A DNA stretch of 20,000 bases, from IMG/VR virus record IMGVR_UViG_3300021579_000006; one strand, given 5' to 3'. Made by a program: the position numbers and the translations under genes. Origin of the DNA: an uncultured virus (IMG/VR IMGVR_UViG_3300021579_000006) (taxonomy: Duplodnaviria; Heunggongvirae; Uroviricota; Caudoviricetes). Below, piece by piece: positions 2,950 through 20,000 of the stretch (its first letter is position 1; each line of letters begins with the position of its first letter). Under the pieces are notes generated by a model. It was not told where the DNA came from. It was given only the letters and a program-made list of their open reading frames with translations, and ran no database searches.

Positions 2950-3348
2950 TTGTCAAGAAAGTTTTTAACGCCAGTAAACCTGCCACATGGGCCAGTTCTA
3001 CCTGCGGCAGGTTTAACTGGCGACCTCTTTTTTCTAACTACAGACAAAAAGGTATATACCTTTGATGGCAGTTCCTGGTCTGCTTCTAGCGGGCCATCTG
3101 CAGCAATGTCAACCCTTACAGATGTTCAGGCACCCTCACCTGCAGGCGGAGATGTCCTTCTCTACGACCAAACCACTACCTCCTGGGTAAATATTAGTTT
3201 GATCAGCCTACTGTCCGATTTCGGGCTTATTTCTGCAGATGCTGGACTATACAACGTGTCTTCAGTAACTGGTACAATTGATGGTGGAACCTCTACCACT
3301 ACTACCTACAACTTTACCTATGATGGTGGAAACGAAAGTAGCTTCTAA
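2950..3348 (+). CDS. Small fibre connector-like protein
   Basis: TTG start with AGAGGA RBS. N-terminus MSRKFLT resembles MSRQFLT of 1552. Has LTDV...GDVLLYD...WVN motif and C-terminal IDGG/YDGG. Confidence 0.65.
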   Translation: MSRKFLTPVNLPHGPVLPAAGLTGDLFFLTTDKKVYTFDGSSWSASSGPSAAMSTLTDVQAPSPAGGDVLLYDQTTTSWVNISLISLLSDFGLISADAGLYNVSSVTGTIDGGTSTTTTYNFTYDGGNESSF

Positions 3349-6300
3349 TGGCAATTAAGATTCAGCTTAGACGCGGTACTGCCGCTAACTGGACCTCAAC
3401 TAACCCTACCCTTTCTGATGGTGAAGTCGGCTTTGAGTCAGACTCTGGCAAGTTTAAAATTGGTCGAGCCGGCCTCGCTTGGGCTGATCTCGGATATGCA
3501 ACCGATCTACCTAGTCAGGTTGATGCATTAATTGCTGACCTTGCAAATACAGTCTCAGCACACAGCAGCTCACACACTAACGTTCACGGCATCGCTGATA
3601 CAAACGAACTAGAGACTAAGACTGGTGCTCAGAATAGGGTAGATGTTGGAGTTTCCACTGCAGAGTCATATACAGATTCAGAGCTATATGCCCACAACTC
3701 TTCAATTCTTAATATTCACGGTATTGCAAACACTGCTGCCCTCGAAACTAAGACTGGCGCTCAGACCAAGGCAGATACTGCTGAATCAGCAGCAAAGGCT
3801 TACGCTGACTCAGCCATCTCTGCGCTAGTAGATTCATCACCAAACCTACTAAATACCTTAAATGAACTGGCCGCAGCTCTTGGAGATGACCCTAACTTCT
3901 CCACTACTGTTGCTAATAACATTGCAACTAAGGCAACTCTTGTTGTAGACACTGCCGCCAACCTGACTTCTGCTAATGCAGTACCTGAGGCAAGCAGCTT
4001 CGTTCTAGAGTCAAATACCGGTAAGTTCAAGATCGGTAATGGTACCTCCCACTGGACTGCTCTTCCATATGCTGGAACAACCTCTACAGAGATTACCGAT
4101 CTAACAGCTCAGCTAGAGAACTATGCCAACAATATGATGGCATATCACATGGCCCAAACCACCGAGGTCCATGGTATTGCTAATGTTGCCGACCTAGTTG
4201 TTTCATCAACTCTTTATGCACACACAAGCGATACTACAAATGTACATGGTATCGCTAATACTGCCGATCTAGCGATGCTCTCAGACATCGATACCCACAA
4301 CCTAGACACCACAAACGTGCACGGTATCGCAAATACTGCAGCACTTGCAACTAAGTCAGACATCGACACCCACAACACTACGACTACCAACGTACATGGT
4401 ATTGCTAATACTGCACTCCTTCTAACAACTGCCGACCAAACCACTATCAACAACTCGATAGCTCTCAAGGCAGACATTAACTCCCCGACTCTAACTGGAA
4501 CTGTCGTTCTCCCTGCCACTACCTCAATTGGCAATGTGTCAGCGTCAGAGATTAGTTACGTAGATGGTGTTACCTCAGGTATTCAGGCTCAGCTTGATAG
4601 CAAGGCCCCGACTGCCAATGCCACATTTACCGGAACAACCTCCGGTATTACCAAAGCAATGGTTGGTTTATCTAATGTTGACAACACCTCAGATGCTAAT
4701 AAGTCAATCTCTACAGCAACCCAATCTGCCCTAGATTTGAAGGCACCTACTTCAAACCCAACCTTTACCGGTACTGTAGTTCTACCAGCAGCAACCTCTA
4801 TCGGAAACGTATCTGCAACCGAGCTAGGCTATGTAGATGGTGTTACTTCAAGCATTCAAGCTCAGCTTGATTCAAAGCTAAGCACAGCCTCTATTGCAGC
4901 AACTTACGCACCGATCGAGTCACCAACCTTCACAGGAACCGTTTCCGGTGTAACTAAGGCTATGGTAGGACTCGGCAACGTAGATAACACTTCGGATGCT
5001 GGCAAGCCTGTATCAACTGCTCAGCAGGCTGCACTTGACCTAAAGGCACCACTTGCCAACGCAACACTTACTGGAACTGTAGTTCTTCCTGCAACTACAT
5101 CTATCGGTACAGTATCTGCCGCCGAGATCGGATATGTAGATGGAGTAACATCTTCAATCCAAACTCAGTTGGATTCTAAGGCACCTACTTCAAACCCAAC
5201 CTTTACCGGTACCGTTTCCGGAATTACCAAGTCAATGGTTGGTCTTGCTAACGTAGATAATACATCGGATGCCAATAAGCCAGTATCTACTGCAACTCAG
5301 ACTGCTTTGGATCTTAAGGCTAACCTAGCTAGCCCAACCTTCACTGGAACTCTTGTTGCCCCTACAGTTAATGCAACTGACCTAACTACTGCTAACCTAA
5401 CGGTCACCGGAACCCAAACTATTGTAAATAGTACTAACCTTGCAGTAGCTGACTCACTTATCTACCTAGCTGACTCGCAGTATTCAGCTGATATTTTAGA
5501 TATAGGTATTTATGGTGCCTACGGTAATGGTGGAACCAACAGCTCTAACCACCCACACACTGGTCTTGTCCGCGATGCCTCCGATGGAGTATGGAAGCTA
5601 GTATCTGGAGCAACCGAACCAACAGATAGCGTAGTCGACTTCACTGGAGTTACCTATGACACTCTAAAGATTGGTGCTCTGCAGGCAACATCTGCAACTA
5701 TTGGAAATGTCTCAAACACCGAGCTCCAATATCTTGATGGCGTAACCTCGGCAGTCCAGACTCAGATTGATTCAAAGGCTCCAACGGCCAGTCCAACCTT
5801 TACAGGAACTGTAACCCTCCCAACTGGAACTGTTACTTCAGCAATGATCCTGGACGGGACCATTGTTAATGGCGATATTTCAGACTCAGCTGCTATCGCA
5901 GTTTCTAAGCTTGCAGCATCAACCATCTCAGGTATCACCCTAGGAAGTAACCTAAACACTCTTACCATCAACAGCGGCCTAACCGGAACTTCATACAACG
6001 GTTCAAGCGCTGTGACTATCGGTATTGATACTGCAGTGGTTGCAACCCTAACTGGAACTCAGACCCTCACCAACAAGACAATCAGCCTCGCTTCCGGTGG
6101 AGTTACATTCTCAGATGGGTCAGTTCAAACTGTTGCTGGCGTTCCTTCAATTACTACTATCTCGGGTAAGAGCGCTTCATACACCCTAAGCGCACTAACT
6201 GAGCGTGACACAATCATTGAAGTTGCTAATACATCAGCCACTACTCTAACTATTCCTCTGGACTCAACATTGAACTTCCCAGTAGGCACTACAATTGATA

Positions 6301-6458
6301 TTATTCAGACTTCAACAGGTCAGGTAACAATTGCTGGTGCCGGTGGAGTTACCGTAAATGCTACTCCAGGTCTGAAGCTTCGCACTCAGTGGTCATCTGC
6401 TACACTACTAAAGCGTGCAGCAAACACCTGGTTGGTCTACGGAGACCTGTCAGCTTAA
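3348..6458 (+). CDS. Long tail fibre protein (1036 aa) with Mtd/hyaluronidase-type N-terminal module
   Basis: IQLRRGTAANWTSTNPTLSDGEVGFESDSGKFKIG resembles the Mtd N-terminal-like module, with a second degenerate copy (ESNTGKFKIGNG). Also HGI repeats, LNELAAALGDDPNF, three VGLxNVDNTSD repeats, and C-terminal FPVGT...WLVYGDL domain. Confidence 0.85.
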   Translation: MAIKIQLRRGTAANWTSTNPTLSDGEVGFESDSGKFKIGRAGLAWADLGYATDLPSQVDALIADLANTVSAHSSSHTNVHGIADTNELETKTGAQNRVDVGVSTAESYTDSELYAHNSSILNIHGIANTAALETKTGAQTKADTAESAAKAYADSAISALVDSSPNLLNTLNELAAALGDDPNFSTTVANNIATKATLVVDTAANLTSANAVPEASSFVLESNTGKFKIGNGTSHWTALPYAGTTSTEITDLTAQLENYANNMMAYHMAQTTEVHGIANVADLVVSSTLYAHTSDTTNVHGIANTADLAMLSDIDTHNLDTTNVHGIANTAALATKSDIDTHNTTTTNVHGIANTALLLTTADQTTINNSIALKADINSPTLTGTVVLPATTSIGNVSASEISYVDGVTSGIQAQLDSKAPTANATFTGTTSGITKAMVGLSNVDNTSDANKSISTATQSALDLKAPTSNPTFTGTVVLPAATSIGNVSATELGYVDGVTSSIQAQLDSKLSTASIAATYAPIESPTFTGTVSGVTKAMVGLGNVDNTSDAGKPVSTAQQAALDLKAPLANATLTGTVVLPATTSIGTVSAAEIGYVDGVTSSIQTQLDSKAPTSNPTFTGTVSGITKSMVGLANVDNTSDANKPVSTATQTALDLKANLASPTFTGTLVAPTVNATDLTTANLTVTGTQTIVNSTNLAVADSLIYLADSQYSADILDIGIYGAYGNGGTNSSNHPHTGLVRDASDGVWKLVSGATEPTDSVVDFTGVTYDTLKIGALQATSATIGNVSNTELQYLDGVTSAVQTQIDSKAPTASPTFTGTVTLPTGTVTSAMILDGTIVNGDISDSAAIAVSKLAASTISGITLGSNLNTLTINSGLTGTSYNGSSAVTIGIDTAVVATLTGTQTLTNKTISLASGGVTFSDGSVQTVAGVPSITTISGKSASYTLSALTERDTIIEVANTSATTLTIPLDSTLNFPVGTTIDIIQTSTGQVTIAGAGGVTVNATPGLKLRTQWSSATLLKRAANTWLVYGDLSA
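3561..4413 (+). repeat. Six H-x7-HGI motifs in the long fibre
   Basis: HSSSHTNVHGI, HNSSILNIHGI, HMAQTTEVHGI, HTSDTTNVHGI, HNLDTTNVHGI, HNTTTTNVHGI. Confidence 0.85.
4460..5830 (+). repeat. Alternating long fibre-shaft repeats
   Basis: Modules IGNVSAxExxYVDGVTSxIQxQLDSK (four copies) and TKxMVGLxNVDNTSDAxKxxSTAxQxALDLKA (three copies). Exact 35-bp duplication at 4740-4774 and 5178-5212. Confidence 0.85.
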
Positions 6459-6475: not shown

Positions 6476-7441
6476 ATGGCAAAAAGAGCTGGTAGACACT
6501 CACAGTCACAGAATGACTTCCTACAGCCTAATGATGTAACAATCACAACTGCAACTAACGTTGGAACTAACCGACCATACCTTGCTGTAGCTACCGGAAC
6601 TAATGGTCAGGGTGGTGCTGTAAACCTAGTATGGACCCTTCCAGCACTATCTCCAGCAGCAACAAGCTATGACATCACTTCAACCCCAGCAACTGTAACT
6701 AAGAATACAACTACACTACCTACTGGTGGTGCACCGTTTGTGTTTGAAGGTCTTGCTTCTGGAGTTTCATATACATTCTCTGTAGTTGCAAAGAATGCTG
6801 CTGGAAATTCTAATGCAGTAACATCATCTTCAGTTGCAGTTACTACTGTTCCTCAAGCTCCTCAGTCGCCAGCCCTAAGCTCGCCAAGTGCTGACTCTGA
6901 CCGAATTGCTTGGACTGTAGGAGCAACTGGTGGTTCAGCTATTACTCAAACTACGCTGGTTCCATCGCTAGCCCCAAATACTCCTATCGTCATCGGAGTA
7001 GGGTCCCTAGCCAATAGCGGCACTCCTACTAGCGCTGTATACTACGATACCCCCGTTCCAGGTGGAACAAATGAGTACTTTAGCCTCTATGCCACTAACG
7101 CAAATGGTAACTCGGCTACTGTAACCACTAATACTATCTCTACTACACCACCGTTCTTCCCACCGTTCTTCCCACCGTTCTTCCCTCCTTACTTCCCATT
7201 CTTCCCACCGTTCTTCCCACCGTTCTTCCCACCGTTCTTCCCTCCTTACTTCCCATTCTTCCCACCGTTCTTCCCACCGTTCTTCCCTTACTTCCCATTC
7301 TTCCCACCGTTCTTCCCACCGTTCTTCCCACCGTTCTTCCCACCGTTCTTCCCACCTTCATTCCCACCACGCTTTGGAATCTTCTCTATTGATCCGAGTA
7401 TGATGGAAGAGGAATCTGAAGTCGAAGAAGACGAAGAATAA
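6476..7441 (+). CDS. Fibronectin type III-like protein with C-terminal (PPFF)n tract and acidic tail
   Basis: RBS AGGAG. FN3 hallmarks VNLVWT..GLASGVSYTFSVVAKNAAGNS and a second unit VPQAP..IAWT..GGSAIT..FSLYATNANGNS, then 76 aa of Pro/Phe repeats and EEESEVEEDEE. Confidence 0.8.
   Translation: MAKRAGRHSQSQNDFLQPNDVTITTATNVGTNRPYLAVATGTNGQGGAVNLVWTLPALSPAATSYDITSTPATVTKNTTTLPTGGAPFVFEGLASGVSYTFSVVAKNAAGNSNAVTSSSVAVTTVPQAPQSPALSSPSADSDRIAWTVGATGGSAITQTTLVPSLAPNTPIVIGVGSLANSGTPTSAVYYDTPVPGGTNEYFSLYATNANGNSATVTTNTISTTPPFFPPFFPPFFPPYFPFFPPFFPPFFPPFFPPYFPFFPPFFPPFFPYFPFFPPFFPPFFPPFFPPFFPPSFPPRFGIFSIDPSMMEEESEVEEDEE
7148..7375 (+). repeat. Coding minisatellite: 12-bp unit CCACCGTTCTTC (PPFF) with a 57-bp higher-order unit
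   Basis: [(PPFF)3 PPYF PFF]x2, (PPFF)2 PYF PFF, (PPFF)4 PPSF PPRF. By my count 36 Pro, 35 Phe, 3 Tyr, 1 Ser and 1 Arg in 228 bp. Confidence 0.97.
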
Positions 7442-7458
7442 AAAAAGATATAACCTAG

Positions 7459-7488
7459 AAGAGGGGCAGAGAAATCTGCTCCTCTTTT
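7459..7488 (+). terminator. Rho-independent terminator-like or mRNA-stabilising hairpin
   Basis: AAGAGGGGCAGA-GAAA-TCTGCTCCTCTT-TT: 12-bp stem with one G-U pair, GNRA loop and short U tract, 17 nt after the stop of the PPFF gene. Confidence 0.75.
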
Positions 7489-7507
7489 AGCATTCCCAGG
7501 AGAGATT

Positions 7508-8302
7508 GTGCCTATACACGCTGATACTAGTCCAAACATTAAATGGAAGCTTCCAGAAGGCAAGCCAGCTTTTTATCTAGAAAATGTATTTACTAAAGAT
7601 ATTTTGAATAAGGTAAAAACAACTATTGATGAACAAGCAAACTGGGGACCAGGTTCAGAAAATAAACCTAATGCAACTCCGTATCACAACATCCTCGGTA
7701 GATGGCATACAGAGGTAGACTTTCCACCAGAGGTCTGGGAGTACCTAGAGAATCTAGGAAAAGAACAATGGGGATTACCAGAACTTAGACTAAAAATAGT
7801 TTGGGTAGCCAGATACCAGCAATATAAGGGAATAACCCCATACATCTGGGAGCACATGGATCAACCAGCTACTCAATACACAGCGGATATTTGCGTGGAA
7901 TCACATCGAGTTCCGAGCTGGGGGCTCTCAATTGATGGTGAGCGTTTCGAGGAGCAAAATAATAGCGGAATCTTTTTTATGGGCCAACAGCAGGTACATA
8001 CTCGGCCTAGATATCCAGTAGACGATGAAGAAGCTTACGTAACAGTTCTTTTTGCTAATTATGCAACTAAAGACCACTGGATTTATGACATTGATTGCTA
8101 CTCCGAAGAAGGAAATATCCAGTACGCAGAGGCTATGAAGAAGTATAAGCTCGATGGTGACATAAGATATTACGAGCATTCCGGGCATGGGCCATACTTT
8201 AACGACTTACCGGAAGGTAATAAGGAATGTCCTGGATGTCAGCAATGCACTGTTGTAGGTATAGACTTTATTAAGAATGTTGAAGGATATATACCTCTAT
8301 GA
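7508..8302 (+). CDS. Divergent 2OG-Fe(II) oxygenase-like protein
   Basis: GTG start with AGGAG RBS. ARY...EHMD (HxD)...FMGQQQVHTR (distal His). Lacks the NDDYEGGE motif of the other seven; C-terminal CPGCQQC. Confidence 0.65.
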   Translation: MPIHADTSPNIKWKLPEGKPAFYLENVFTKDILNKVKTTIDEQANWGPGSENKPNATPYHNILGRWHTEVDFPPEVWEYLENLGKEQWGLPELRLKIVWVARYQQYKGITPYIWEHMDQPATQYTADICVESHRVPSWGLSIDGERFEEQNNSGIFFMGQQQVHTRPRYPVDDEEAYVTVLFANYATKDHWIYDIDCYSEEGNIQYAEAMKKYKLDGDIRYYEHSGHGPYFNDLPEGNKECPGCQQCTVVGIDFIKNVEGYIPL

Positions 8303-9297
8303 CAAAAATACTTGTCTCAATGATCGCCTATCGCGAGCGTCAACTAGCTGAGTCAGTTAGAGATTGCTATGAGAAGGCAGCTAAGCCAGGGAATCTAATA
8401 TTCTCGATTGTATCGGAGCAAAGTAAGCCAGAGCTTCATGCAGACCTAAGTTTCATCCCTGAGGGTCAGCTAGTCTATAGAAAATACGATCTCTCAAAAT
8501 ATAGAGGGGTACTTTGGTCTAGGGATAAGACAACAGAAGTATCTGAAGAATATGACTATATTCTCTATACCTGCGGGCACAACTTATTTGCCGAAGGCTG
8601 GGACACTATAGTTCTAGAGGAATACGAAAAAGCAAAAGAAATAAATCCTAAAGCGCTACTCACGGTCTCTGGGCCAGAGTACGAGATGAATTCAGACTGG
8701 AGCATTAGCTATACTTCTAGAGCAGGACGAGTAAAAAATAGCTATAGACCATTCATAACTGAAGGATATATTCCAGGCCATAGTTTCCCGGGAACTCAGC
8801 TAGTTCCGGAGGATAGTTCGGTTCATGAAGACTACTACCTACAGCTCAGCTGGGTATTTGCACCTAAAGAGTTTGTAGATGAAGTCCCGCTAGACCCGGA
8901 TATGTGTTATCACGGTGAAGAGATTTATGTAACCATCCAAGCATGGTGCCGCGGGTGGCGTTTCTATTCAACACCAAGAATCCTTTATTACCACAATACA
9001 TACAAAGAGTACCCAGACGAGATCCACTCTAGAATGACTACCCACCGCCCGTGGTCAGATATGAATAAAGATGCTTTCTGGAAACAATCAGATGATTCAA
9101 TGTTGAAACTAAATCTATTACTATCAGGGAGACTTACAGGCATATATGGAGACATCCCTAAAGAGTCCGTAGAAGAGTATTGCAAAATGTCAGGGATGGA
9201 TCATAGAATTTGCGAATATAATCCAAACTATAACAACTTAGGTATACCTAGACACGCAGAAGATTTTAGACTTTTAGAGCCAATTATTTTAGAATAA
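8299..9297 (+). CDS. GlcNAc transferase, GT60 / Skp1-hydroxyproline GlcNAc transferase (Gnt1)-like
   Basis: Motif order matches the Gnt1/GlcNAc family: ILVSMIAYRE (cf. IFVSIASYRD), RGVLWSR (cf. GPxxAR), YILYTCGHNLF..GWD (cf. YxLQIDSHxRF..WD), EVPLDP...HGEE, AWCRGWRFYS...YH. Confidence 0.75.
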   Translation: MTKILVSMIAYRERQLAESVRDCYEKAAKPGNLIFSIVSEQSKPELHADLSFIPEGQLVYRKYDLSKYRGVLWSRDKTTEVSEEYDYILYTCGHNLFAEGWDTIVLEEYEKAKEINPKALLTVSGPEYEMNSDWSISYTSRAGRVKNSYRPFITEGYIPGHSFPGTQLVPEDSSVHEDYYLQLSWVFAPKEFVDEVPLDPDMCYHGEEIYVTIQAWCRGWRFYSTPRILYYHNTYKEYPDEIHSRMTTHRPWSDMNKDAFWKQSDDSMLKLNLLLSGRLTGIYGDIPKESVEEYCKMSGMDHRICEYNPNYNNLGIPRHAEDFRLLEPIILE

Positions 9298-9313: not shown

Positions 9314-10048
9314 ATGAATGATTGGTTCACTAAAGATAGATCAGAGACCTCATCTAATAGAATGCCAGATCGACAGTATGGTAACGTTACCGTACTAAAT
9401 CCAGCTCTAGGTATAAATATCTATAGAGGCGCCTATACACCAGAGCAATGCGCAAAGTTTATTCAAACCCTCGAAAATAAGCTAGATGGGTCAGGACCCT
9501 ACAAATGGCAGGGTGCCATGGTTACCAACTCAGCTGAGGCGGATGTTTCAGCTAGAAATGCCCTAGACTTTAAGTTTGGCTCGAAGGATTTAGGGCCTAG
9601 AACTCCTCAGAATGCCGAGCTTCTGGATATGCATGAAGAAATTTTTCAGAGCATGTATAGCTGCGTATCAGACTACGGGCGCTACTGGGGTGTAGGGATG
9701 CAGTCATTCGAGGCATTTAATTTTGTAAAGTATCCCGGTAAGGGTACCCACTTTAAGATTCACGCTGACCATGGTCCAACCTATGTCAGTACTGTATCTA
9801 TCGTTATCTATTTGAATGATGACTATGAAGGCGGAGAGATTTATTTCCCTCGAATGGATGGCTTGAAGATTAAGCCTAAAGCAGGAGATATTGTAGTATT
9901 CCCGTCTATCTTTATCTATGAGCATGCCTCTGAAGATATGATCGACGGAACCAAGTACGCTATAGTCATCATGAGCGACTACAATGATCGTGATAATGTT
10001 AATCGTCGAGTACCACATGTAATTACGGAATATGAGTTGAAATACTAA
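9314..10048 (+). CDS. 2OG-Fe(II) oxygenase, prolyl 4-hydroxylase-like (Lys type)
   Basis: HAD...YLNDDYEGGEIYF...KPKAG...FPS...H-x9-K (HASEDMIDGTK). Confidence 0.88.
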   Translation: MNDWFTKDRSETSSNRMPDRQYGNVTVLNPALGINIYRGAYTPEQCAKFIQTLENKLDGSGPYKWQGAMVTNSAEADVSARNALDFKFGSKDLGPRTPQNAELLDMHEEIFQSMYSCVSDYGRYWGVGMQSFEAFNFVKYPGKGTHFKIHADHGPTYVSTVSIVIYLNDDYEGGEIYFPRMDGLKIKPKAGDIVVFPSIFIYEHASEDMIDGTKYAIVIMSDYNDRDNVNRRVPHVITEYELKY

Positions 10049-10806
10049 TGCAACCAGAGATAGTAAGTACCTCAGCGAAAATAGAAGAGCTAGGTAAGCA
10101 AGAGCAGAAGACAGTAGAAGAACGTCTAAAAGCTTGGTATAACATCGAAGAGAAAACCTGGACATCCTGCGAAGAGGTTGCCCCTGGGTCAGGAATTTGG
10201 GTATATCGAGATGTCCTACCAAAGGATATGAATATCATCGAGCGACTGGAAACAGTGCTAGCTGATCCAAGCAATAACTACTCATACGCCGAGGCTATGG
10301 TTGGCTATGCCATGCGAATGCCAGAATACCGTGATTGCGTAGATTTTAAATACAAAAAGTCAGACATTATCAACGATAAGTCAGAAGCTGGACTAGCACT
10401 ACAAGAGTTGGCAGATGATGTCAACTATCGCCAACTCCAAGCTGTTAAGGACTATACCCGCCGATACAACGTAGGAGAGCTTCGATACTGGGAAGCAACT
10501 AACTACGTTCGTTATGGAGAAGGTCAGCACTTCCAGGAGCACCACGACCACGGCTACTCATACAACTGCGTAGTATCTCTAGTTAGCTTTCCTAATGATG
10601 ACTATGAAGGTGGAGAATTGTTCTTCCGTCTACAGGGTGCAACCATTAAACCAAAGGCTGGAGAGACTTATATCTTCCCTTCAAACTTCATGTACCCGCA
10701 TCGTGCAATGCCAGTAATCTCTGGTGTCAAATATTCGATGGTTACCATGCTTGACTTCTCAGAGAAGTTCCACAACCCTAAGTTCTACGAGGAGACTGGT
10801 AACTAG
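10048..10806 (+). CDS. 2OG-Fe(II) oxygenase, prolyl 4-hydroxylase-like (Lys type)
   Basis: HHD...NDDYEGGELFF...KPKAG...FPSN...HRAMPVISGVK. TAATG-coupled. Confidence 0.88.
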   Translation: MQPEIVSTSAKIEELGKQEQKTVEERLKAWYNIEEKTWTSCEEVAPGSGIWVYRDVLPKDMNIIERLETVLADPSNNYSYAEAMVGYAMRMPEYRDCVDFKYKKSDIINDKSEAGLALQELADDVNYRQLQAVKDYTRRYNVGELRYWEATNYVRYGEGQHFQEHHDHGYSYNCVVSLVSFPNDDYEGGELFFRLQGATIKPKAGETYIFPSNFMYPHRAMPVISGVKYSMVTMLDFSEKFHNPKFYEETGN

Positions 10807-11540
10807 TGAAGACTATTACTGTAACCAAGGCTGGAAACAATGTAGCAAACATTGAACCATTAACCGCTAGACGAGACTGGATGGACGAGACTGCAGATAA
10901 GCACGCATATATGTGCTTCCCTGTAAGTCTGACTAATAAACTAGGCTGGGGAATATCGTTCCCTAAGGATATTCGCTTCATCTGGGATGGAATTACCGAT
11001 ACTACTGACACCCACATCAAAGTCCTCGAGGGGGAAGAGTATGTATACACTGGCCGCGGAAATGCGACTATTAGCTTCAGATCAGGTTTAGTGTTTAAAA
11101 CTGATCAGAACACTACCCTTCTATCGATGCCTGTTCCAAATCAGTTCATTCGTGGTGCTCAATGCTATACAACCCTGATTAGTACTTCATTCTATATGCC
11201 AGAACTACCTCTGGGTTGGCGTCTAACGGAACCAAACATTGAAGTATTCATCCCGGCTGGAACTCCAGTTGCTGCAGTTCTCCCTATCTCTTTAGGAGCC
11301 TTAGAGGGCGACTATCAACTAGAGATTTCAGATAAATTCCTTGACCGTGCGTACTGGGAAGAAGTAACCAAGTACGGAGATGCTGCAGAAATCAAAAATG
11401 GTGTCGGGGACTGGTCAAAAATGTATCGAGATGCTTTGAACTACAAGGGTGAAGTCGTCGGAAAACACGAAACTAAATCGATTAAATTGAAGACCATTAC
11501 ATGCCCAGTGACAGGAGCCACGATTGAGCAACAAGATTAA
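10806..11540 (+). CDS. DUF6065-like protein
   Basis: RRDWMDET...HAYMCFPVSLTNKLGW resembles the DUF6065 N-terminal pattern (RxWMD...AYRCLPL..AN..GW); later IPAGTPVAAVLPI. GTG start overlaps the previous stop. Confidence 0.65.
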   Translation: MKTITVTKAGNNVANIEPLTARRDWMDETADKHAYMCFPVSLTNKLGWGISFPKDIRFIWDGITDTTDTHIKVLEGEEYVYTGRGNATISFRSGLVFKTDQNTTLLSMPVPNQFIRGAQCYTTLISTSFYMPELPLGWRLTEPNIEVFIPAGTPVAAVLPISLGALEGDYQLEISDKFLDRAYWEEVTKYGDAAEIKNGVGDWSKMYRDALNYKGEVVGKHETKSIKLKTITCPVTGATIEQQD

Positions 11541-12255
11541 ATTTATTGCTAACCGCCCGTGGCTTAAAAAAGACAGTAAGTCAACACCTGAACCCACATC
11601 TAAAAACATTCCAGACTGGTATCGTAAAGCAGATCGGTTTGCCATCAATCCAATGACTAACGAGCCATGGGAGCACCCACAGCAAGGGAAGATCCCTACA
11701 TGGAAGGCGTGCCCAGCAATCATGGATGTAATGATGACTGGATATGTCTATAAAACACCATGTGACCTAGAGTTCTATCTAGATTCAAATAATCAAATTG
11801 CAGTAAAAGTATTAGACCCTCAGAACCAAGATTTCTGCGGCCCCCGAGACCCACTACCTCAGTTTGTCCACCCCATGGGTTATCACGAGAAGCACTTTGC
11901 TTGGTGGGCTGACTGGGCCGTATCAGTTCCGGAGGGGTACAGCGTTCTGTACACTCACCCACTGAATCGGTATGATCTACCATTCCAGACAACTAATGGC
12001 GTGATTGACAATGATAAGGTGAATTTACCAGGAACCATGCCTTTCTTTATTAAGGAAGGTTGGACTGGAATTCTACCAGCTGGAACTCCTTATGCTCAGC
12101 TCATCCCTTTCAAGCGTGAGGACTGGGAGTCAGAGATCTCGGTTCCTGACTACAAGACTATGGTTAAGAGTAACCATGATAACTCAACCAAGTATCGAGT
12201 ACGAGATGGTGGAGTATACAAGAACTCCGTCTGGACTAGAAGAATTTACGGATAA
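11524..12255 (+). CDS. Conserved phage protein, DUF6065-related (possible dUTPase-like beta fold)
   Basis: TTG start with AGGAG RBS. IPDWY...TWKACPAIMD..GY...PEGYSVLYTHPLNR...GVIDND...LPAGTPYAQLIPFKREDW; shares the Cys-Pro region and PAGTP with the preceding gene. Confidence 0.55.
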   Translation: MSNKIKFIANRPWLKKDSKSTPEPTSKNIPDWYRKADRFAINPMTNEPWEHPQQGKIPTWKACPAIMDVMMTGYVYKTPCDLEFYLDSNNQIAVKVLDPQNQDFCGPRDPLPQFVHPMGYHEKHFAWWADWAVSVPEGYSVLYTHPLNRYDLPFQTTNGVIDNDKVNLPGTMPFFIKEGWTGILPAGTPYAQLIPFKREDWESEISVPDYKTMVKSNHDNSTKYRVRDGGVYKNSVWTRRIYG

Positions 12256-12268
12256 CTAGGATATAACT

Positions 12269-12964
12269 ATGCAGAATAACGAGTTCGAAAACTCCAATAA
12301 CCAACACGCGATGAATGACCGAGTCTCTATAACTCCTTCAGGATTCTTTGGTAACTCCCCTGACAACATTGTTACTCTAGAAAACTTTATGACTGAAGAA
12401 GAGATTACTACTTTAGATACCTTCATTCGTAATAACGAATATTGGGACGTGACTGAAACTCACTACAATGACGATGGTACCGTAATCTATGACTCAGAGT
12501 ACTGGAAGGATCGAGTAGCCACATACGATACGATCCGTAAAACTAGTGAAGAGATTCCTAAGATTATTGAAGGAATGGTAGCTCGCCTAAAGGTTGAGGT
12601 AGATAAGTACCTTCAGGTTGACGCAATCCCCACTAGCCCGGCTATGGTGCGCTGGCTTCCAGGTCAGTTGCAGATGCCCCATGCAGACAAAGAACTGCAT
12701 GAAGAGCCTAACCGCGGTATCCCTAATGATTTCCCTTACTACGATATTGCTGGACTCTTTTATATCAATGATGACTACGAGGGTGGGGAGTTGTATTTCC
12801 CACTCCAAGGAATTCAGTTCAAGCCTAAGCGTGGAGCTGCATACTTCTTCCCTGGTGATATGAACTACATCCATGGAGTAACGAAGATCGAATCAGGCAT
12901 TCGCTACACTTGCCCATTTTTCTGGACTATCGCCAAGCACACAGGTGAACGTCAACCTCAATGA
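12269..12964 (+). CDS. 2OG-Fe(II) oxygenase, prolyl hydroxylase-like (Arg type)
   Basis: PHAD...YINDDYEGGELYF...FPG...HGVTKIESGIR. Confidence 0.88.
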   Translation: MQNNEFENSNNQHAMNDRVSITPSGFFGNSPDNIVTLENFMTEEEITTLDTFIRNNEYWDVTETHYNDDGTVIYDSEYWKDRVATYDTIRKTSEEIPKIIEGMVARLKVEVDKYLQVDAIPTSPAMVRWLPGQLQMPHADKELHEEPNRGIPNDFPYYDIAGLFYINDDYEGGELYFPLQGIQFKPKRGAAYFFPGDMNYIHGVTKIESGIRYTCPFFWTIAKHTGERQPQ

Positions 12965-13554
12965 ATACTATAACTTACTACAAAGATGAGCCTATTTTAG
13001 ATAGTAAGTTGGGTATTAAAACTAATCGACTAGTTAGAATATCTGATTTCCTGGATGAAAAAGAGCTGGATATCCTTATGGATATTTTAAAAAATGATGA
13101 ACTTCCTTGGAGCGAGACATCATTCAATAAGTCCTATGGAATCTCTTTAGTAGATATGGAAAGTAACCTCGAGTCTAGAGGTCTTTCAAAGGATTACTTT
13201 TTAAACCTAAGTAAAAAGTTTAAATCAACTGTAGAAAGTATCTTTGAACACCCTGTACTAGATACCTATGTACAAGCCCAGCGGTGGTCAAAAGGTGGAC
13301 AAGCTGACCCACACTCAGATAATTCAGACTACAAGGGCAATGTATCTGAGTTTAGTAAGTTGAAATATGTATCTATACTATATGCTAATTCTGACTACTC
13401 AGGCGGGGAGATCTACTTCCCAGATCATGGCCTAGAGATAAAACCGGAAAAGAATGACTTACTAGTTTTTCCCGGTGGTTTTGAAAATATTCACGGGGTG
13501 AAGGAAGTAACCTCAGGATTTAGATACACCATTATGGCCTTTTGGGACTTTTAA
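12961..13554 (+). CDS. 2OG-Fe(II) oxygenase, prolyl hydroxylase-like (Arg type, P3H-like motifs)
   Basis: PHSDN...SILYANSDYSGGEIYF...FPGGFENIHGVKEVTSGFR. ATGA overlap with the previous gene. Confidence 0.85.
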   Translation: MNTITYYKDEPILDSKLGIKTNRLVRISDFLDEKELDILMDILKNDELPWSETSFNKSYGISLVDMESNLESRGLSKDYFLNLSKKFKSTVESIFEHPVLDTYVQAQRWSKGGQADPHSDNSDYKGNVSEFSKLKYVSILYANSDYSGGEIYFPDHGLEIKPEKNDLLVFPGGFENIHGVKEVTSGFRYTIMAFWDF

Positions 13555-13587: not shown

Positions 13588-14385
13588 ATGTCAGAGAATA
13601 AAGAAATGCACCTAGCTGAGAAACTTCATGAAGAGGTTTTCCTATACGAGAACGTAATCGAGGACCCTCGTAAACTCATTAAGATGATTGAAGATCTTGA
13701 TTCGGTCGAGGAAGTCTACTCTGTCATCCCTAAGTGGGGTAAGTGGCTATCAAATAGCAATGATGGTCACACTTTTGGTGGTAAAAAAGATTTTAATCCT
13801 GATCTGGTTGACCAACTTCCAGAGGAATATAAGGCAGATGTTCAGTACATTATTGATCAGATTCGCTCAGGTGTTAAGAAGGTAGCGGAAGCTTACTTTA
13901 GAGACCGAGAGTTCGATTATGAGCCAAATCTATCTCCTTTCGTAGGAATCATGAAGTATCGACCAGGCTGTGCAATGGGGGCCCACTTTGATGCCCAGGC
14001 TGGCGACCGTACTTTGAAGTACTCTATTGTTCTATATCTGAATGAAGACTACGAGGGTGGGGAAATCTCATTCATCATTCGAGACTATGATCTCCGCGAC
14101 CCAAAGAATGACCTACTGAAGCCAGAAGAAGATATCGAGGATGCTAAGGATTCAGGTCTAATTGACTTCTGGCGTAAGCCAAAGGCTGGATCAGCATTGA
14201 TCTTCCCGTCTACGCATCCCTACAAGCATCAGGTTCACATCATGAAGTCTGGAGATAAATACATGTTCCCTGGATTTGTATTCCACCCAGACTATGATCA
14301 ACATGATGAAGAGTCTCGTAAGTTCTTTAACGCAGGATCCCAGTACGAGCCAATTGTAAACCCGTATTTAACACCAGAGGCATAA
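13588..14385 (+). CDS. 2OG-Fe(II) oxygenase, prolyl 4-hydroxylase-like (Lys type) with internal insertion
   Basis: HFD...YLNEDYEGGEISF-[acidic insert]-KPKAG...FPS...HQVHIMKSGDK. Confidence 0.87.
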   Translation: MSENKEMHLAEKLHEEVFLYENVIEDPRKLIKMIEDLDSVEEVYSVIPKWGKWLSNSNDGHTFGGKKDFNPDLVDQLPEEYKADVQYIIDQIRSGVKKVAEAYFRDREFDYEPNLSPFVGIMKYRPGCAMGAHFDAQAGDRTLKYSIVLYLNEDYEGGEISFIIRDYDLRDPKNDLLKPEEDIEDAKDSGLIDFWRKPKAGSALIFPSTHPYKHQVHIMKSGDKYMFPGFVFHPDYDQHDEESRKFFNAGSQYEPIVNPYLTPEA

Positions 14386-14387
14386 CT

Positions 14388-15038
14388 GTGGGCATTGCCT
14401 ATAAAGAGGTTTACAACAATATCCTATATTTCGAGAACGCAATTCCAAATATAGAATCAGTAGTCAATGACATTGAAAAGACTAATAGTATTGCATTAAC
14501 CCCATGGCTGCCTTGGTATGCTAATTCAGAGGGGTCACATCGATATGGTGACTTAAAGAGTATGGTCAAAGATCTTTTAACTGAAGAATCAGACCTCACC
14601 ACTAAGCAAGCAATCATCGGGATTTTTGGAACAATAGCCACTTCCATGGGGATATGCGCTATTGAATACGCCTTTAAATACGGAATAGATCCCGAACAGC
14701 TCGAGTATGCGCTAGAAGCCATGAAGCTACCAAATACAAAGATTGGCATAAATAAATACTCTGAAGGCCAGTTCATGGGACCGCACATTGACTGGAATGA
14801 GCAAAACTACGATATTGCATACACCATCGTTGTCTATTTGAATGATGACTATGAAGGCGGAGAGTTATATTTCGTTGATCCTTCCATAGACCTTAAGCTA
14901 AAACCTAAGGCTGGAAGCATAGTAATGTTTCCATCCAACCTTCCCTACCTCCACCAGTCGTGTGAAATTACTAAAGGTAGAAAAATGCTTATTACTCATC
15001 ACTGGAAGAGTAAGCTCCTACTAAGAAAAGACAGCTGA
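14388..15038 (+). CDS. 2OG-Fe(II) oxygenase, prolyl 4-hydroxylase-like (Lys type)
   Basis: HID...YLNDDYEGGELYF...KPKAG...FPSN...HQSCEITKGRK. GTG start. Confidence 0.87.
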   Translation: MGIAYKEVYNNILYFENAIPNIESVVNDIEKTNSIALTPWLPWYANSEGSHRYGDLKSMVKDLLTEESDLTTKQAIIGIFGTIATSMGICAIEYAFKYGIDPEQLEYALEAMKLPNTKIGINKYSEGQFMGPHIDWNEQNYDIAYTIVVYLNDDYEGGELYFVDPSIDLKLKPKAGSIVMFPSNLPYLHQSCEITKGRKMLITHHWKSKLLLRKDS

Positions 15039-15514
15039 TGTCTGGAGATTTAAATCCAGTTAACCTGGATATGGTTGAAAAGTTTAAGTTAGAAGTTAGA
15101 GATAAAGTGGCTTCTGGCTACATGCTAACCGTAGCTAGAGATGGCGAGAATCCAGTCAGATCTATCTACTTCTATGACAATGCCCTGGATGCAGCTACAG
15201 GATATGCAGCCTACTCCGACTGGGGATTTGCGAAAGAATATCTAACCGTGACTTTATACGAGCCTACCGGCACTACACATGAAAAAATACTTAAACGCCC
15301 ACGTGGCGGAGAATGTACGTTCCTAAAAAATGACTACCTAGAGGTTACTAAAGCTCTAGAATCGGCTAAATTAGAGACGCCAGAACCAACTTTTAATAAA
15401 CTAATTTTTACGTTTGCTAAGATATTTTCTAGAGACAATCAAAGATTTGACCACGAAAGATTTCTTTCTAACTTAGGATATACAGGAGAGACAACCGATG
15501 AGCATCGAGAATAA
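15038..15514 (+). CDS. Hypothetical phage protein
   Basis: 158 aa, TGATG-coupled upstream and overlapping the next gene. C-terminal DNQRFDHERFL; no catalytic motif recognised. Confidence 0.7.
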   Translation: MSGDLNPVNLDMVEKFKLEVRDKVASGYMLTVARDGENPVRSIYFYDNALDAATGYAAYSDWGFAKEYLTVTLYEPTGTTHEKILKRPRGGECTFLKNDYLEVTKALESAKLETPEPTFNKLIFTFAKIFSRDNQRFDHERFLSNLGYTGETTDEHRE

Positions 15515-16184
15515 AAGATTCTTAAAGGAAGATATCATCTGCTACGACGACTTCATCCCGGTAGAGGACCAGCAAAAGCTCGTATCCTACTTCGAAGATC
15601 CTGAACTACCGTGGACAATGTCGGCATTTTTCGAGTCATACGGGATGAGCCTTCTACCCGACGAACCACTTTTAGAGAAGTACGGATTGCCTAAGGATTA
15701 CCTAGGAAACCTAGCATCAAGACTTAAAGAGTATGTAGAAGATGCGCATCAGCGCCCAGTTAAGTCTGTATCTAGCCATGCCCAAAAATGGGAAAAGGGA
15801 GCTTTTGCACCGTTCCACTCGGATAATACCGATATGGATGGCAACTGGTCAGCATGGGAGAAAAGTAAGTTTGTTTGCCTACTCTATGTAAACGATGATT
15901 ACGAGGGTGGAGAACTCGATTTTAGAGACCACAGCTTAACAATTAAACCTAAATCGGGTCAATTAATTACATTCCCGGGGGGAATTAACAATGTACACCA
16001 GGTTAAGGAAGTTCTAACAGGGACTCGCCACACTATCGGAGCATTCTGGGATTTTGCCGAATCCGAGTATTCGGAGGAGCGCATCAAGGAGTGGGACGAG
16101 GAGGTCACTAAGGTGCGTGAACAGCAGGCTGTACAGCAGGCAGAATGGAAGCAGGGTATTAAGAACGGCACCCCTATCTACTAG
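15498..16184 (+). CDS. 2OG-Fe(II) oxygenase, prolyl hydroxylase-like (Arg type)
   Basis: RBS AGGAG. HSDN...YVNDDYEGGELDF...FPGG..NVHQVKEVLTGTR, plus a charged helical C-terminal extension. Confidence 0.88.
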   Translation: MSIENKRFLKEDIICYDDFIPVEDQQKLVSYFEDPELPWTMSAFFESYGMSLLPDEPLLEKYGLPKDYLGNLASRLKEYVEDAHQRPVKSVSSHAQKWEKGAFAPFHSDNTDMDGNWSAWEKSKFVCLLYVNDDYEGGELDFRDHSLTIKPKSGQLITFPGGINNVHQVKEVLTGTRHTIGAFWDFAESEYSEERIKEWDEEVTKVREQQAVQQAEWKQGIKNGTPIY

Positions 16185-16250: not shown

Positions 16251-16612
16251 GTGCACTGTGCTACCGCAAATTATTACGACATTATTGTCGATCAAGGCGC
16301 TACGCTTTTGCGGTCAATTGCAGTCAAAAACTCAGCAAAAAAGCCAATAACCATTACTGGATATACAGCTCGTATGCAAGTTCGTGAAAAAACCTCGTCT
16401 ATGTCGGTAGTTCTAACGTTGACCACTGAGAACGGTGGTATCGAGATCAATGGAACAGCCGGATCAATATTAATCATAGCTAGCCCATCCCAGACTGAAG
16501 CCTTAGAAATAGGTAAATACACTTATGATCTGGAAGTAGAAGAAACCTCTACGGGGATAGTAACAAAAGTTATTCAAGGCAATCTTGTCGTTCGTCCGGA
16601 GGTTACTCGATA

Positions 16613-16613
<1 letters not shown>
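16251..16613 (+). CDS. Phage fibre adaptor/attachment-like protein (paralog 2)
   Basis: 120 aa with [38 protein letters not shown] and EVTR shared with 863-1225. AGAGGA RBS. Confidence 0.65.
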
Positions 16614-18165
<1,552 letters not shown>

Positions 18166-18166
<1 letters not shown>

Positions 18167-20000
18167 TGACCGATTTTATTTTTCCACTAGATCCGTCGCA
18201 GGGTGATATTTATAGCTTCGAAGGCTCGTCATGGGTTTGGAATGGCTACACCTGGGAAGCCCGCTCGACTCAAGCAGTCGGTGGACCCACCGGTCCTACA
18301 GGAGCTGCCTCTAGTATCCCTGGCCCAACCGGACCATCGGTAACCGGCCCTACGGGATCAACTGGAGAGCAAGGTCCAACTGGAGCAACAGGTCCTAGTG
18401 TAACTGGACCAACTGGTGCTCAGGGTGAGACCGGGTCTATCGGACGTATCGGCCCGACCGGATCGCGAGGTGTACAGGGGATTCAAGGTATCCAAGGTAT
18501 CCAAGGTATCCAAGGATTAACTGGTCAAATCGGGCCTAGAGGAGATGTAGGACCAACTGGCCCAACAGGTGCTACAGGTGCAGATTCAACAGTTGCAGGA
18601 CCAACAGGTGCAACCGGACCTTCTGTAACTGGACCAACTGGTGCTCCTTCAAATGTAACTGGACCTACTGGCGCTCGAGGTGCTCAGGGTGATCAGGGCG
18701 TACAAGGCATTCAAGGTATTCAAGGCATTCAAGGTGTTACGGGGGATACTGGTGCTACTGGCCCTACAGGTGCAACCGGACCTTCTGTAACTGGTCCAAC
18801 TGGATCAACTGGAAACCAGGGTGTAATAACTCAGGCTACTGCACCTTCTGATATTTCTCAGTTATGGCTTGATACTAGTGTTAGCGGTATTGAAGGCATG
18901 GGACCAACCGGCCCAACCGGTGCTTCGGGCGATGCAGGACTTCCTGGTGCTACTGGCCCTACTGGTGCAACTGGTGATTCAGGTCCTACGGGTCCTTCCG
19001 TGACTGGCCCAACAGGTGCTACAGGTGCAGATTCAACAGTTGCAGGACCAACAGGTGCAACCGGACCAGCTGGCATTTCCGTAACAGGACCAACTGGAGC
19101 TGCTTCTACTGTTCCCGGACCAACCGGACCAGCAGGCGCTAATGGATATGTTGGCGCAGATGGTACACCAGGAGCCACGGGACCTACTGGTGCTGCAGGA
19201 ACTAATGGAACTGATGGCCCTACTGGCCCTACAGGGTCTCAAGGCCCAATTGGCGCTACTGGTCCTAGCATAACAGGACCTACTGGTGCTGCAAGCACGG
19301 TAACCGGGCCAACCGGATCAACTGGAAATACTGGAGCAACAGGTGCAGCCGGACCTGGCGTTGCTGCAGGCGGAACTGCCGGGCAGATCCTTGCAAAGGT
19401 TGATGGTACCGACTACAACACGACTTGGATTGCTAACTACTCAGAGTCAATTCGCCACCAGGTTAAAGCTGCGGCTGCAATCAATAAGGGTCAGCCAGTC
19501 TATGTAAGTTCTGCTGATGGAACAAACATGATTGTTTCTCTAGCAAGTAATGCAAGTGAAGCTACGTCGAGCAAGACTATGGGTCTACTTGATGCAACCG
19601 TTGCGATTAATGGTGTAGCAAATGTAATTACTGAAGGTCTTCTTGCTGGATTAAATACTAATGGAGCTAGTGCTGGAGATCCTGTATGGCTAGGAGTTAA
19701 TGGATCTCTTGTTTATGGTTTAGCAAATAAGCCAGTTGCTCCGGCGCACCTAGTATTTATTGGTATTGTTACTCGTGCAAACTCAAATAATGGTGAAATT
19801 TTTATTCGCCCTCAGAATGGATTTGAACTAGACGAGTTGCACGATATACTTATTACTTCAAAAACTAATGGCGATTTGCTTCAGTATGAGTCATCTACTG
19901 GTCTTTGGAAAAATAAAGACCAATCTACGCTCGTTATCGCTGAGTCACAGGTAACTAATCTTGTTACTGATCTAGCATCTAAGGCATCACTAACATACCC
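18166..20000 (+). CDS. Second collagen-like fibre protein (3'-partial, at least 611 aa)
   Basis: Not in the ORF track because it runs off the window. ATG in TAATG at 18166: [31 protein letters not shown], then about 380 aa of GPT/GAT/GIQ repeats, [20 protein letters not shown], a beta domain (INKGQPVYV...TEGLL..LNT....GDPVWLG...IGIV) and LDELHDI...GDLLQY...WKN. Confidence 0.9.
18556..19067 (+). repeat. Exact 65-bp direct repeat within the collagen gene (18556-18620 and 19003-19067)
   Basis: ACTGGCCCAACAGGTGCTACAGGTGCAGATTCAACAGTTGCAGGACCAACAGGTGCAACCGGACC occurs twice. Confidence 0.85.

Follow-up and report, generated by a model that had tools for sequence, protein, structure and literature searches.

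Aquatic phages often carry rows of genes for 2-oxoglutarate (2OG) oxygenases, for which, to our knowledge, no substrate has been identified since the rows were first described. The first sugar on the protein Skp1, N-acetylglucosamine (GlcNAc), is added by Gnt1. In Dictyostelium and Toxoplasma, Gnt1 is described as acting after the cytoplasmic prolyl 4-hydroxylase (P4H) PhyA has hydroxylated Pro143, near the C-terminus of Skp1 (PMC3515798). The P4H of the virus PBCV-1 is described as hydroxylating the Pro-Ala-Pro-Lys repeats of that virus (PMC3634087), and Pro-rich chains of extensins and of an algal mastigoneme are described as becoming stiff rods after prolyl hydroxylation and O-glycosylation (PMC11015965). 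Cyanophage Syn9 carries a row of about 10 diverse 2OG dioxygenases with a dUTPase-fold protein, read in one survey as secondary-metabolite enzymes; the same survey predicts that co-encoded tail-collar or collagen-like proteins are substrates in bacterial dioxygenase clusters and also predicts sulfation in bacterial clusters (Iyer, Abhiman, de Souza and Aravind 2010, PMC2938197). Here we describe a 20,000-nt stretch of DNA from an uncultured virus of the Caudoviricetes (IMG/VR record IMGVR_UViG_3300021579_000006; the whole stretch is hereafter called the window), in which a gene for a protein with two FN3 domains, a Pro-Pro-Phe-Phe tract and a short acidic tail (hereafter the tract gene) is followed by genes for eight putative 2OG oxygenases and a PF11397 glycosyltransferase.

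Judging from its homologues, the Pro/aromatic tract is genuine and conserved, a stalk not described before in a protein of a phage fibre module. A prolyl hydroxylase and a glycosyltransferase encoded by a virus together with their Pro-rich target are already known in kind; what is new here, and plausible from the gene associations described below, is that the acidic tail behind the tract may be a portable tag tied to a P4H-fold oxygenase and to the PF11397 transferase. The features of the tract gene and of its 3' border are as follows.

6476-7441, plus strand: FN3-FN3-(PPFF)n-tail protein of 321 residues (open reading frame (ORF) call)
6476-6529, plus strand: conserved N-terminal peptide with K3, G6, S9, N13-D-F-L16 and P18 (alignments A1 and A4)
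6539-6838, plus strand: first FN3 domain, residues 22-121 (Pfam fn3; AlphaFold2 with a predicted local distance difference test score (pLDDT) above 90; Foldseek)
6863-7141, plus strand: second FN3-like beta-sandwich, residues 130-222 (AlphaFold2 strands with mostly high pLDDT; Foldseek)
7148-7375, plus strand: (Pro-Pro-Phe-Phe)n tract, residues 225-300 (composition, 12-nt repeat, homologues)
7352-7415, plus strand: 64-nt stretch encoding PPSFPPRFGIFSIDPSMMEEE (exact repeat at the 3' end of a second FN3 gene)
7376-7438, plus strand: C-terminal tail, consisting of an I-x-S-[IV]-[DEP] motif followed by acidic residues (alignment A4)
7455-7490, plus strand: 16-bp hairpin of the terminator or attenuator kind, in the gap that follows the tract gene (folding energy)

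An earlier note on this DNA had counted 76 consecutive residues, 74 of them Pro, Phe or Tyr, and this count was correct: residues 225-300 comprise 36 Pro, 35 Phe, 3 Tyr, 1 Ser and 1 Arg. The span that it gave to the tract, 7148-7441, begins at the right position and ends at the stop codon; the tract itself stops at 7375 and is followed by a 21-residue acidic tail, GIFSIDPSMMEEESEVEEDEE, and then by the stop. Tandem Repeats Finder resolved the tract DNA into a 12-nt unit, CCACCGTTCTTC, repeated 19.4 times, and a 57-nt super-unit repeated 3.9 times. Given a content of 12.5% Pro, Phe and Tyr in the 5971 residues of the other ORFs of the window, the chance of finding at least 74 such residues among 76 is about 1e-63. 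The tract has no Gly and a single Ser, and thus fits neither the Gly-X-Y repeat of collagen nor the Ser-Pro(3-5) repeat of extensin. AlphaFold2 assigned no secondary structure to it (pLDDT 52-60; below 50 in the tail), and it is predicted to be a non-globular, extended stalk.

The body of the protein had been called FN3-like, and this label stands. Pfam fn3 (PF00041) matched residues 43-113 with 25.8 bits against a cut-off of 25, AlphaFold2 placed two beta-sandwich domains at residues 22-121 and 130-222 with pLDDT above 90, and the best Foldseek matches were tandem FN3 pairs (E about 2e-9) that span both domains. Within the N-terminal peptide, for which AlphaFold2 predicted a short helix at residues 11-15, K3, G6, L16 and P18 are invariant in alignment A1 (21 sequences), to which alignment A4 (13 sequences) adds S9, N13, D14 and F15. 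This peptide may be the end by which the protein attaches to the fibre or the virion. The absence of a signal peptide, to which attention had been drawn, is irrelevant for a phage protein.

A word-indexed search scored 8000 candidates and found 473 homologues of the tract protein at E<=1e-3. A Pro/aromatic tract lies in frame at the same position in all of the 120 homologues listed, so the existence and the frame of the tract are secure; its length in these proteins varies from 13 to 120 residues (median 63; Pro, Phe, Tyr and His), and their identity to the window protein ranges from 35 to 98%. Other tract types among the relatives are FFxPPG, (PFF)n plus poly-Pro, SF[TV]PY, FGFTP and VFGFSPF. 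What follows the tract differs even more in kind: 66 of these 120 proteins end in a Hint-size domain of about 155-180 residues, 18 in a short Cys-rich segment, six in an acidic tail and 30 in other short segments. A Cys stands within 20 residues past the tract in 61 of the 66 Hint-size ends, and eight of 15 sampled long forms gave Hint-clan Pfam matches at E<=0.01, one of them over the cut-off. The window protein shares with the family the NDFLxP N-terminal peptide, the two FN3 domains, a tract that begins after about residue 200 and an Mtd_N fibre gene on its 5' side. It is not of the Hint/BIL kind, having 21 residues after the tract and Gly at the position of the Cys. As far as these homologues indicate, this is a large phage family of FN3-FN3 proteins with a Pro/aromatic tract and an exchangeable cap, and the window protein is its minority form with an acidic cap.

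The family appears to have escaped description. A tblastn search of 50,697 deposited phage records gave no match for the tract protein or for the product of the next gene, o7508. The literature searched on phage PPFF, actinophage 2OG/FN3 and phage hydroxyproline contained no account of the tract family, of its exchangeable caps or of the tag/enzyme module, and Kavagutti 2019 (PMC6802176) makes no mention of oxygenases, hydroxylases, collagen, fibronectin or tail fibres.

The neighbourhood of the tract gene was then compared between phages. tblastn confirmed at least 512 stretches of the tract gene in IMG/VR, from which 68 loci were kept. An Mtd_N tail-fibre homologue lies 5' of the tract gene in 68 of 68 loci, and PF13640-type oxygenases occur in 59, that is, in 59 of the 63 loci with downstream DNA. 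Five of the nine loci without oxygenases lack downstream DNA, one has 2 kb of it, and three (L048, L051 and L064) have more than 9 kb. All four oxygenase-less loci that have downstream DNA retain a 243-residue cassette gene, and L048, L051, L064 and L068 have SF[TV]PY tracts with one proline per repeat. Across the 46 loci with at least 8 kb downstream, those whose tract has more Pro-Pro pairs tended to have more oxygenases (Spearman 0.64, uncorrected for kinship). The nine loci with at most three Pro-Pro pairs have 0, 0, 0, 1, 1, 2, 2, 2 and 9 oxygenases; the other 37 have 2-10, and at least five in 34 of them. Eight loci with single-Pro repeats of the SFTPY, FGFTP and VFGFSPF types have 0-2 oxygenases.

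These counts bear on the proposal of the earlier note that the tract is the substrate of the downstream enzymes. The context favours it, through the 59 of 63 loci, the dose relation with Pro-Pro, the PF11397 gene and the P4H-like fold of o7508; modification itself found no support beyond this context. In two Hint-type relatives (L011:3973-6647 and L052:5334-6585), sulfotransferase-like genes (HIPR[CT]SG) and an extra HxD...H protein lie between the tract gene and the oxygenases, which hints at sulfation of Tyr or of hydroxylated residues.

The genes downstream of the tract gene in the window are the following.

7508-8302, plus strand: o7508, divergent 2OG-Fe(II) dioxygenase of 264 residues with a prolyl-hydroxylase-like fold (AlphaFold2, Foldseek, invariant residues)
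8299-9297, plus strand: PF11397 glycosyltransferase of 332 residues (Pfam, 75.3 bits, cut-off 21)
9314-10048 and 10048-10806, plus strand: two PF13640 2OG-Fe(II) oxygenases (Pfam)
10806-11540, plus strand: DUF6065 protein (Pfam), present in 54 of the 68 loci
11524-12255, plus strand: 243-residue protein with no Pfam family even at E<=10, present in 60 of the 68 loci
12269-12964, 12961-13554, 13588-14385, 14388-15038 and 15498-16184, plus strand: five PF13640-type oxygenases (Pfam)
15038-15514, plus strand: 158-residue protein of no assigned family (ORF)

No Pfam family matched o7508, even at E<=10, and a full HMMER scan collected 113 representatives at E<=1e-3. Y103, H116, D118, W138, H164 and R166 are invariant in the 58-row alignment. 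The AlphaFold2 model (pLDDT 90.4) had the collagen prolyl hydroxylase of PBCV-1 (5c5t) as its best Foldseek match (E 5.8e-7); the matches ranked below it were also 2OG oxygenases, PHD2 and a bacterial P4H among them. It has the double-stranded beta-helix, the HxD...H iron triad and the basic residue for 2OG that define a 2OG dioxygenase; on this model, o7508 is the eighth, divergent oxygenase of the cassette, and prolyl hydroxylation is its predicted activity.

The transferase gene overlaps the stop of o7508 by 4 nt. We take PF11397 to be modelled on Gnt1, of the Skp1 hydroxyproline GlcNAc-transferase family. This transferase has 100 homologues; in alignment A3 (31 homologues), C92 and G93 are nearly invariant and H94 is invariant. 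Among the deposited phage records, tblastn with the transferase matched just four distant jumbo-phage genes (24-25% identity), and PDB sequence searches with the transferase and with o7508 returned nothing meaningful. A complex prediction that paired the transferase (31 rows) with residues 282-321 of the tract protein (13 rows) scored 0.01 against a mark of 0.32.

Four of the five oxygenases in the distal group exceed the 27-bit Pfam cut-off, and that at 12269-12964 reaches 26.4. The nearest solved relatives of the product of 14388-15038 are the Bacillus anthracis P4H (3itq, 5hv0) and prolyl 3-hydroxylase 1, with weak E-values of about 5e-4, and those of the product of 10048-10806 are the collagen lysyl hydroxylases LH3, at a weak E of 0.006. 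The DUF6065 protein and the 243-residue protein bear a faint likeness to each other. Pfam detected no halogenase in the window.

The hairpin at 7455-7490 has a folding energy of -26.3 kcal/mol (z -4.7), and none of 200 shuffles was as low. It may control the ratio of structural-gene to enzyme expression. As judged by eye, L109 has a hairpin of this kind at the same place (about 3150-3190), in which both strands of the stem carry changes.

The acidic tail is associated with two of these genes in particular, o7508 and the transferase. PF11397 was found in four of 50 records with a tract-family gene, and adjoined that gene only in the near-twin of the window and in G045. A degenerate DNA pattern for FPPRF-x-I-x-S-[IV]-D-P retrieved seven stretches from IMG/VR, three of them copies of the window's own phage. 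A PF11397 gene lies within three genes downstream in all seven, and o7508 is also present in six. Six of the stretches are tract-family genes followed by o7508 and then by the transferase; the seventh encodes a second tag-bearing protein, which is described below.

Approached from the other side, 79 loci were fetched by means of the transferase, and the order tract gene, o7508, transferase, oxygenases was found in 18 of them. Upstream tract proteins were recognized here by an N-terminal motif filter, which missed that of L178; all those that it did recognize end in a tail of the I-x-S-[IV]-[DEP] type. Thirteen of the 18 loci have a visible C-terminus, which was always short and acidic and never Hint-like or a Cys knob; the I-x-S-[IV]-[DEP] core is present in 12 of these, and L178 has a different tail. 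Pooling yielded 67 unique proteins whose C-terminus is complete and whose genes are followed by 3.3 kb or more of DNA; the tail or the transferase had served as bait for part of this sample. Both genes accompany 11 of 11 tailed proteins, the transferase accompanies none of the 56 untailed ones, and o7508 accompanies two of these 56 (L070 and L053). The unbiased part of the sample, the 68 tract-gene loci, contains a single locus with tail and transferase together (L005) and a single locus, L008, in which a variant tail lacks the transferase. In a quick IQ-TREE phylogeny of the FN3 body (68 rows), the tail requires five changes, and the transferase changes alongside it in five of five independent pairs.

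One comparison locates the border of the module. The DNA of L109 and that of L055 agree at 85-90% of positions from the fibre gene to the end of the tract; beyond the tract, L109 has a 2175-bp block containing the tail, the hairpin, o7508 and the transferase, where L055 has 375 bp. The left edge of the module is therefore the junction of tract and tail. From the C-termini compared here, the tail motif is the mark of a minority form of the family that has neither the Hint domain nor the Cys knob. The tail had been proposed to serve in solubility or enzyme recognition, as do the followers of ribosomally synthesized and post-translationally modified peptides (RiPPs); the co-occurrence with o7508 and the transferase and the joint changes on the tree are in favour of enzyme recognition, and the likeness to a RiPP follower was not borne out.

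Three further observations concern the same genes in other phages. L133, L136, L146 and L147 encode (Pro-Pro-Val-Thr)n tip proteins with a Cys knob, followed by DUF6171, an o7508-like gene and PF11397; by gene order, (PPVT)n is a third Pro-Pro tract type tied to the same putative enzyme pair. In a second phage group (L123-L185, about 50 loci), a PF11397 gene with 47-49% identity is located between RecA-like, Cas4-like and RuvC-like genes and the terminase. L008 has, in place of o7508 and the transferase, another 213-residue protein with an H-x-D ... H pattern (4795-5436).

The tag occurs twice in the genome of the window. The second copy is in a minus-strand gene (G000:C1:60526-62622) that lies, in the orientation of the window, about 19 kb downstream and encodes a multi-FN3 protein of 729 residues (table-11 ORF call) with poly-Thr linkers, ending in PPSFPPRFGIFSIDPSMMEEEL. 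The two genes are identical over 64 of 64 nt and have unrelated flanks, and in four of four public runs the 64-mer is joined to two distinct sequences at each of its ends, which is what two copies in the genome would produce. The second tagged gene comes after a collagen-repeat fibre gene and is followed by two small genes and then by a second PF11397 gene (124.5 bits) with 20% identity to the first. Pfam at E<=10 returned nothing for the small genes of this second cassette, and its PF11397 gene has no P4H-type oxygenase as a neighbour. Relatives of the 729-residue protein were found at one locus only, with 100% identity over the residues present.

Since the tag here stands beside a PF11397 gene of only 20% identity, the association does not stem from block transfer of the L109/L055 type, and of all single observations, as read from the two genes, this second copy argues most strongly for a link between tag and transferase. 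Two PPxF units lie within the copied piece, and the working unit is therefore probably 'PPxF-PPRF plus tail' rather than the acidic run alone. In the 13 tails of alignment A4, P298 (in the last PPxF unit), F300 and S304 are invariant and Pro307 is not. The Pro of 'IDP' was considered as a Skp1-like acceptor and was dropped because it is not conserved in the wider tail set, where SIDERE, SIDESA, SVEPEE and SIPDTV replace it. A Skp1-like acceptor proline within the tail is thus unlikely as a general feature, a point that counts against too close a parallel with Skp1. As candidate acceptors we rank first the last Pro-Pro unit, which would be hydroxylated and then glycosylated with the tail as a docking site, and second Ser304, which would be O-glycosylated directly.

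Taken together, these associations lead us to a combined reading, to which we give an even chance, in which the tract is hydroxylated by the oxygenases and the tag is served by o7508 and the transferase. Hydroxylation of the Pro-Pro units in the stalk would fall to the seven adjacent PF13640-type, collagen-type 2OG-Fe(II) oxygenases and would make a very hydrophobic chain both soluble and stiff. The cap, in most relatives a putative self-processing Hint-like domain or a small Cys-rich knob, would here be a short acidic peptide that, with the last two PPxF units, forms a portable tag served by o7508 and the PF11397 transferase. In the manner of PhyA and Gnt1 on Skp1, a proline at or beside the tag would be hydroxylated, and an N-acetylhexosamine would be added there or to the invariant Ser304. 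The tag on the second FN3 protein, beside the second PF11397 gene, would recruit the same chemistry. A bolder version seems to us rather unlikely: that the 21 residues are a portable 'glyco-tag' that recruits a P4H-fold enzyme and a GT60-type transferase, giving a hydroxyproline- or Ser-linked sugar cap in the bacterial cytoplasm; that this would be a counterpart, and possibly the evolutionary source, of the Skp1 oxygen-sensing modification of eukaryotes; and that the seven other oxygenases poly-hydroxylate the stalk, turning it into a rod, stiff or adhesive, that has no counterpart among the protein materials described.

Several observations weigh against the combined reading, and two other explanations draw on them. 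The tract might be a passive spacer that holds the cap off the FN3 body, with the oxygenases acting on collagen-repeat or other fibres, host proteins or small molecules. Collagen-repeat fibres, possibly the true substrates, are encoded in the same genome, both in the window and beside the second tagged protein; the Syn9 dioxygenase array, which is read as a set of metabolite enzymes, occurs with no such tract reported in the account of that array (PMC2938197); AlphaFold2 gives the tract no structure; and the tract varies from 13 to 120 residues, differing even between 98%-identical proteins. The correlation with Pro-Pro content also has exceptions, in that L021 has three Pro-Pro units and nine oxygenases and the (PFF)n-plus-poly-Pro tracts of L013, L042, L056 and L067 go with only two. 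Homologues of the two collagen-repeat proteins of the window (16613-18166 and 18166-19998) are present, however, in 14 and 2 of the 68 loci, respectively, whereas oxygenases are present in 59; the oxygenase count follows the Pro-Pro content, falling to 0-2 at single-proline tracts; and a composition fixed at Pro, Phe, Tyr and His across bodies only 35-60% identical is more than a mere spacer would need. We consider a passive spacer to be on the unlikely side. The tail, for its part, might be a simple solubilizing or capping end, possibly the remnant of the first strand of a lost Hint domain, that rides with the two genes through crossover in the tract DNA. Tail, o7508 and transferase are contiguous and tract repeats are shared between phages, so that one recombination within the tract moves all three together, and their co-occurrence may reflect linkage and not function; the similarity between L109 and L055 breaks exactly at the end of the tract, and the tail occupies the position of Cys1 of the Hint-like domain in relatives. 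L008 and P0024 carry a tail one residue shorter (G-YSIDPRELD...), and L008 has no transferase in 8.8 kb downstream; L178 has o7508 and the transferase behind its different tail; and in about 50 of the 79 transferase loci the neighbours are replication and terminase genes, and a tract protein is absent from the vicinity. The sign test on the five pairs of the tree gave p 0.0625, the lowest value reachable with five, and the use of baits in the pooled sample weighs in the same direction. Against a tail that is unlinked in function, Ser304 and the I-x-S-[IV] core remain invariant while the transferase diverges to 53% identity, and the 64-nt tag has been copied onto a protein without a PPFF tract, beside the 20%-identical PF11397 gene. 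We regard an unlinked tail as distinctly unlikely.

The remaining explanations concern the nature of the gene product and of the assembly. The earlier note had compared the gene with a RiPP precursor, from which the tract would be excised into antamanide-like Pro-Phe peptides with the acidic tail as follower; several modifying enzymes do lie downstream, and the PPFF unit occurs in antamanide and cyclolinopeptide A. The analogy fails on a 321-residue protein with two folded FN3 domains, encoded with a tail-fibre module in 68 of 68 loci, whose relatives end in Hint-like domains or Cys knobs and not in follower peptides; Pfam found no protease, macrocyclase or transporter in the window, no protease or cyclase gene adjoins the tract gene, and the single subtilase that the genome encodes is far away. 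We hold this explanation to be highly improbable, and the parallel with the two cyclic peptides has no bearing on mechanism. Extremely improbable, in our view, is short-read mis-assembly across repeats as the origin of the tract or of its junction with the tail. The contigs of four public runs do break inside the tract, none spanning it; two IMG/VR records start or stop inside such a tract; a 98%-identical protein of 261 residues (P0001) has only about 16 tract residues; and the 64-nt tag has two left and two right contexts. The identical 321-residue protein is nevertheless encoded by two long records (124.8 kb and 66.7 kb), short contigs link the tract to the tag (7327-7381) and the tag to the acidic end and o7508 (7386-7900), the same gene order recurs with diverged sequence in at least 10 other lineages, and the frame is kept in the 120 homologues listed above. 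The artefact explanation survives only for the exact length of the tract, which is less secure than its existence and frame.

Tracts of this kind can break short-read assemblies and mimic genome termini. The 124-bp 'direct terminal repeat' on which the 100% completeness of G045 (154,192 bp) is based lies inside a PPYF tract (1-170 and 153,900-154,192); both ends of the contig fall within the tandem repeat. L096 likewise starts within the tract. A second copy of the tail was sought in G045, and none was found.

The window is the minus strand of G000:C1:66924-86923, within an IMG/VR record of 124,826 bp that is estimated to be 73% complete. Its fibre genes outside the tract gene and the cassette are as follows.

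3348-6458, plus strand: tail-fibre gene of 1036 residues with an N-terminal Mtd_N domain (Pfam PF18454, E 2.5e-15), directly 5' of the tract gene
16613-18166 and 18166-19998 (open at the window end), plus strand: two collagen-repeat fibre proteins (Pfam Collagen, E 9e-42 and 2.2e-26)

The two collagen-repeat fibres are the alternative candidate substrates for the oxygenases. Within the tail-fibre gene, 4236-4415 contains 2.4 copies of a 75-nt repeat encoding T-N-V-H-G-I-A-N-T-A. Paralogous proteins of 120 residues are encoded at 863-1225 and 16251-16613, the first at the head of the Mtd_N fibre genes and the second at the head of the collagen-repeat genes, which suggests duplicated fibre cassettes. 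Elsewhere, the record codes for two WhiB proteins, DUF3039, NrdI/E/F, ThyX, an SPP1-type Dit and a T4-type large terminase, as well as several collagen-repeat fibres, more 2OG oxygenases and more glycosyltransferases. By its gene content, this is the profile of a large siphovirus of Actinobacteria. The public runs that contained at least one fifth of the sampled words of the window were all labelled freshwater metagenomes, and no RNA run was among the public runs containing this stretch. We propose that the virus is an uncultured siphovirus infecting freshwater Actinobacteria and that ORF 6476-7441 supplies its tail-fibre module with an accessory or 'tip' protein; we infer that this protein is part of the virion.

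The co-variation of a neighbouring gene product with the oxygenase row would provide such rows with a concrete candidate peptide. The tail would be a 21-residue handle with one invariant serine and a flanking Pro-Pro unit, tied to two enzymes, one of them a member of the family responsible for glycosylating the hydroxyproline of protist Skp1. If the combined reading is true, this would be the first hydroxyproline-based modification of phage structural proteins, and it would offer a compact enzyme/tag pair together with a Pro/aromatic low-complexity material whose properties are set by oxygen-dependent hydroxylation.

The locus resembles and departs from each of the known systems in different respects. 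Like PBCV-1 (vCPH, 5c5t), it combines a virus-encoded, here putative, collagen-type prolyl hydroxylase with Pro-rich repeat proteins; unlike it, the virus is a bacterial phage with eight oxygenase genes in a row rather than one, and the repeat is Pro-Pro-Phe-Phe, on a candidate substrate encoded by a neighbouring gene. The resemblance to the Skp1 pathway lies in genes for a P4H-fold enzyme and a PF11397/GT60 transferase that overlap behind the gene for a protein with a conserved C-terminal tag, whereas the target is not Skp1 and the phage tail conserves a serine and not a proline of its own. For the Syn9 array no protein substrate was proposed, whereas here a neighbouring Pro/aromatic tract co-varies with the array. 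With the hydroxyproline-rich glycoproteins, the window protein has in common a Pro-rich, low-complexity chain, but its tract lacks Ser-Pro(n), is half aromatic and belongs to a phage-made cytoplasmic protein for which modification is predicted. Finally, C-terminal Hint/BIL domains follow the tract in relatives, whereas in the window protein the acidic tail stands where such a domain would be.

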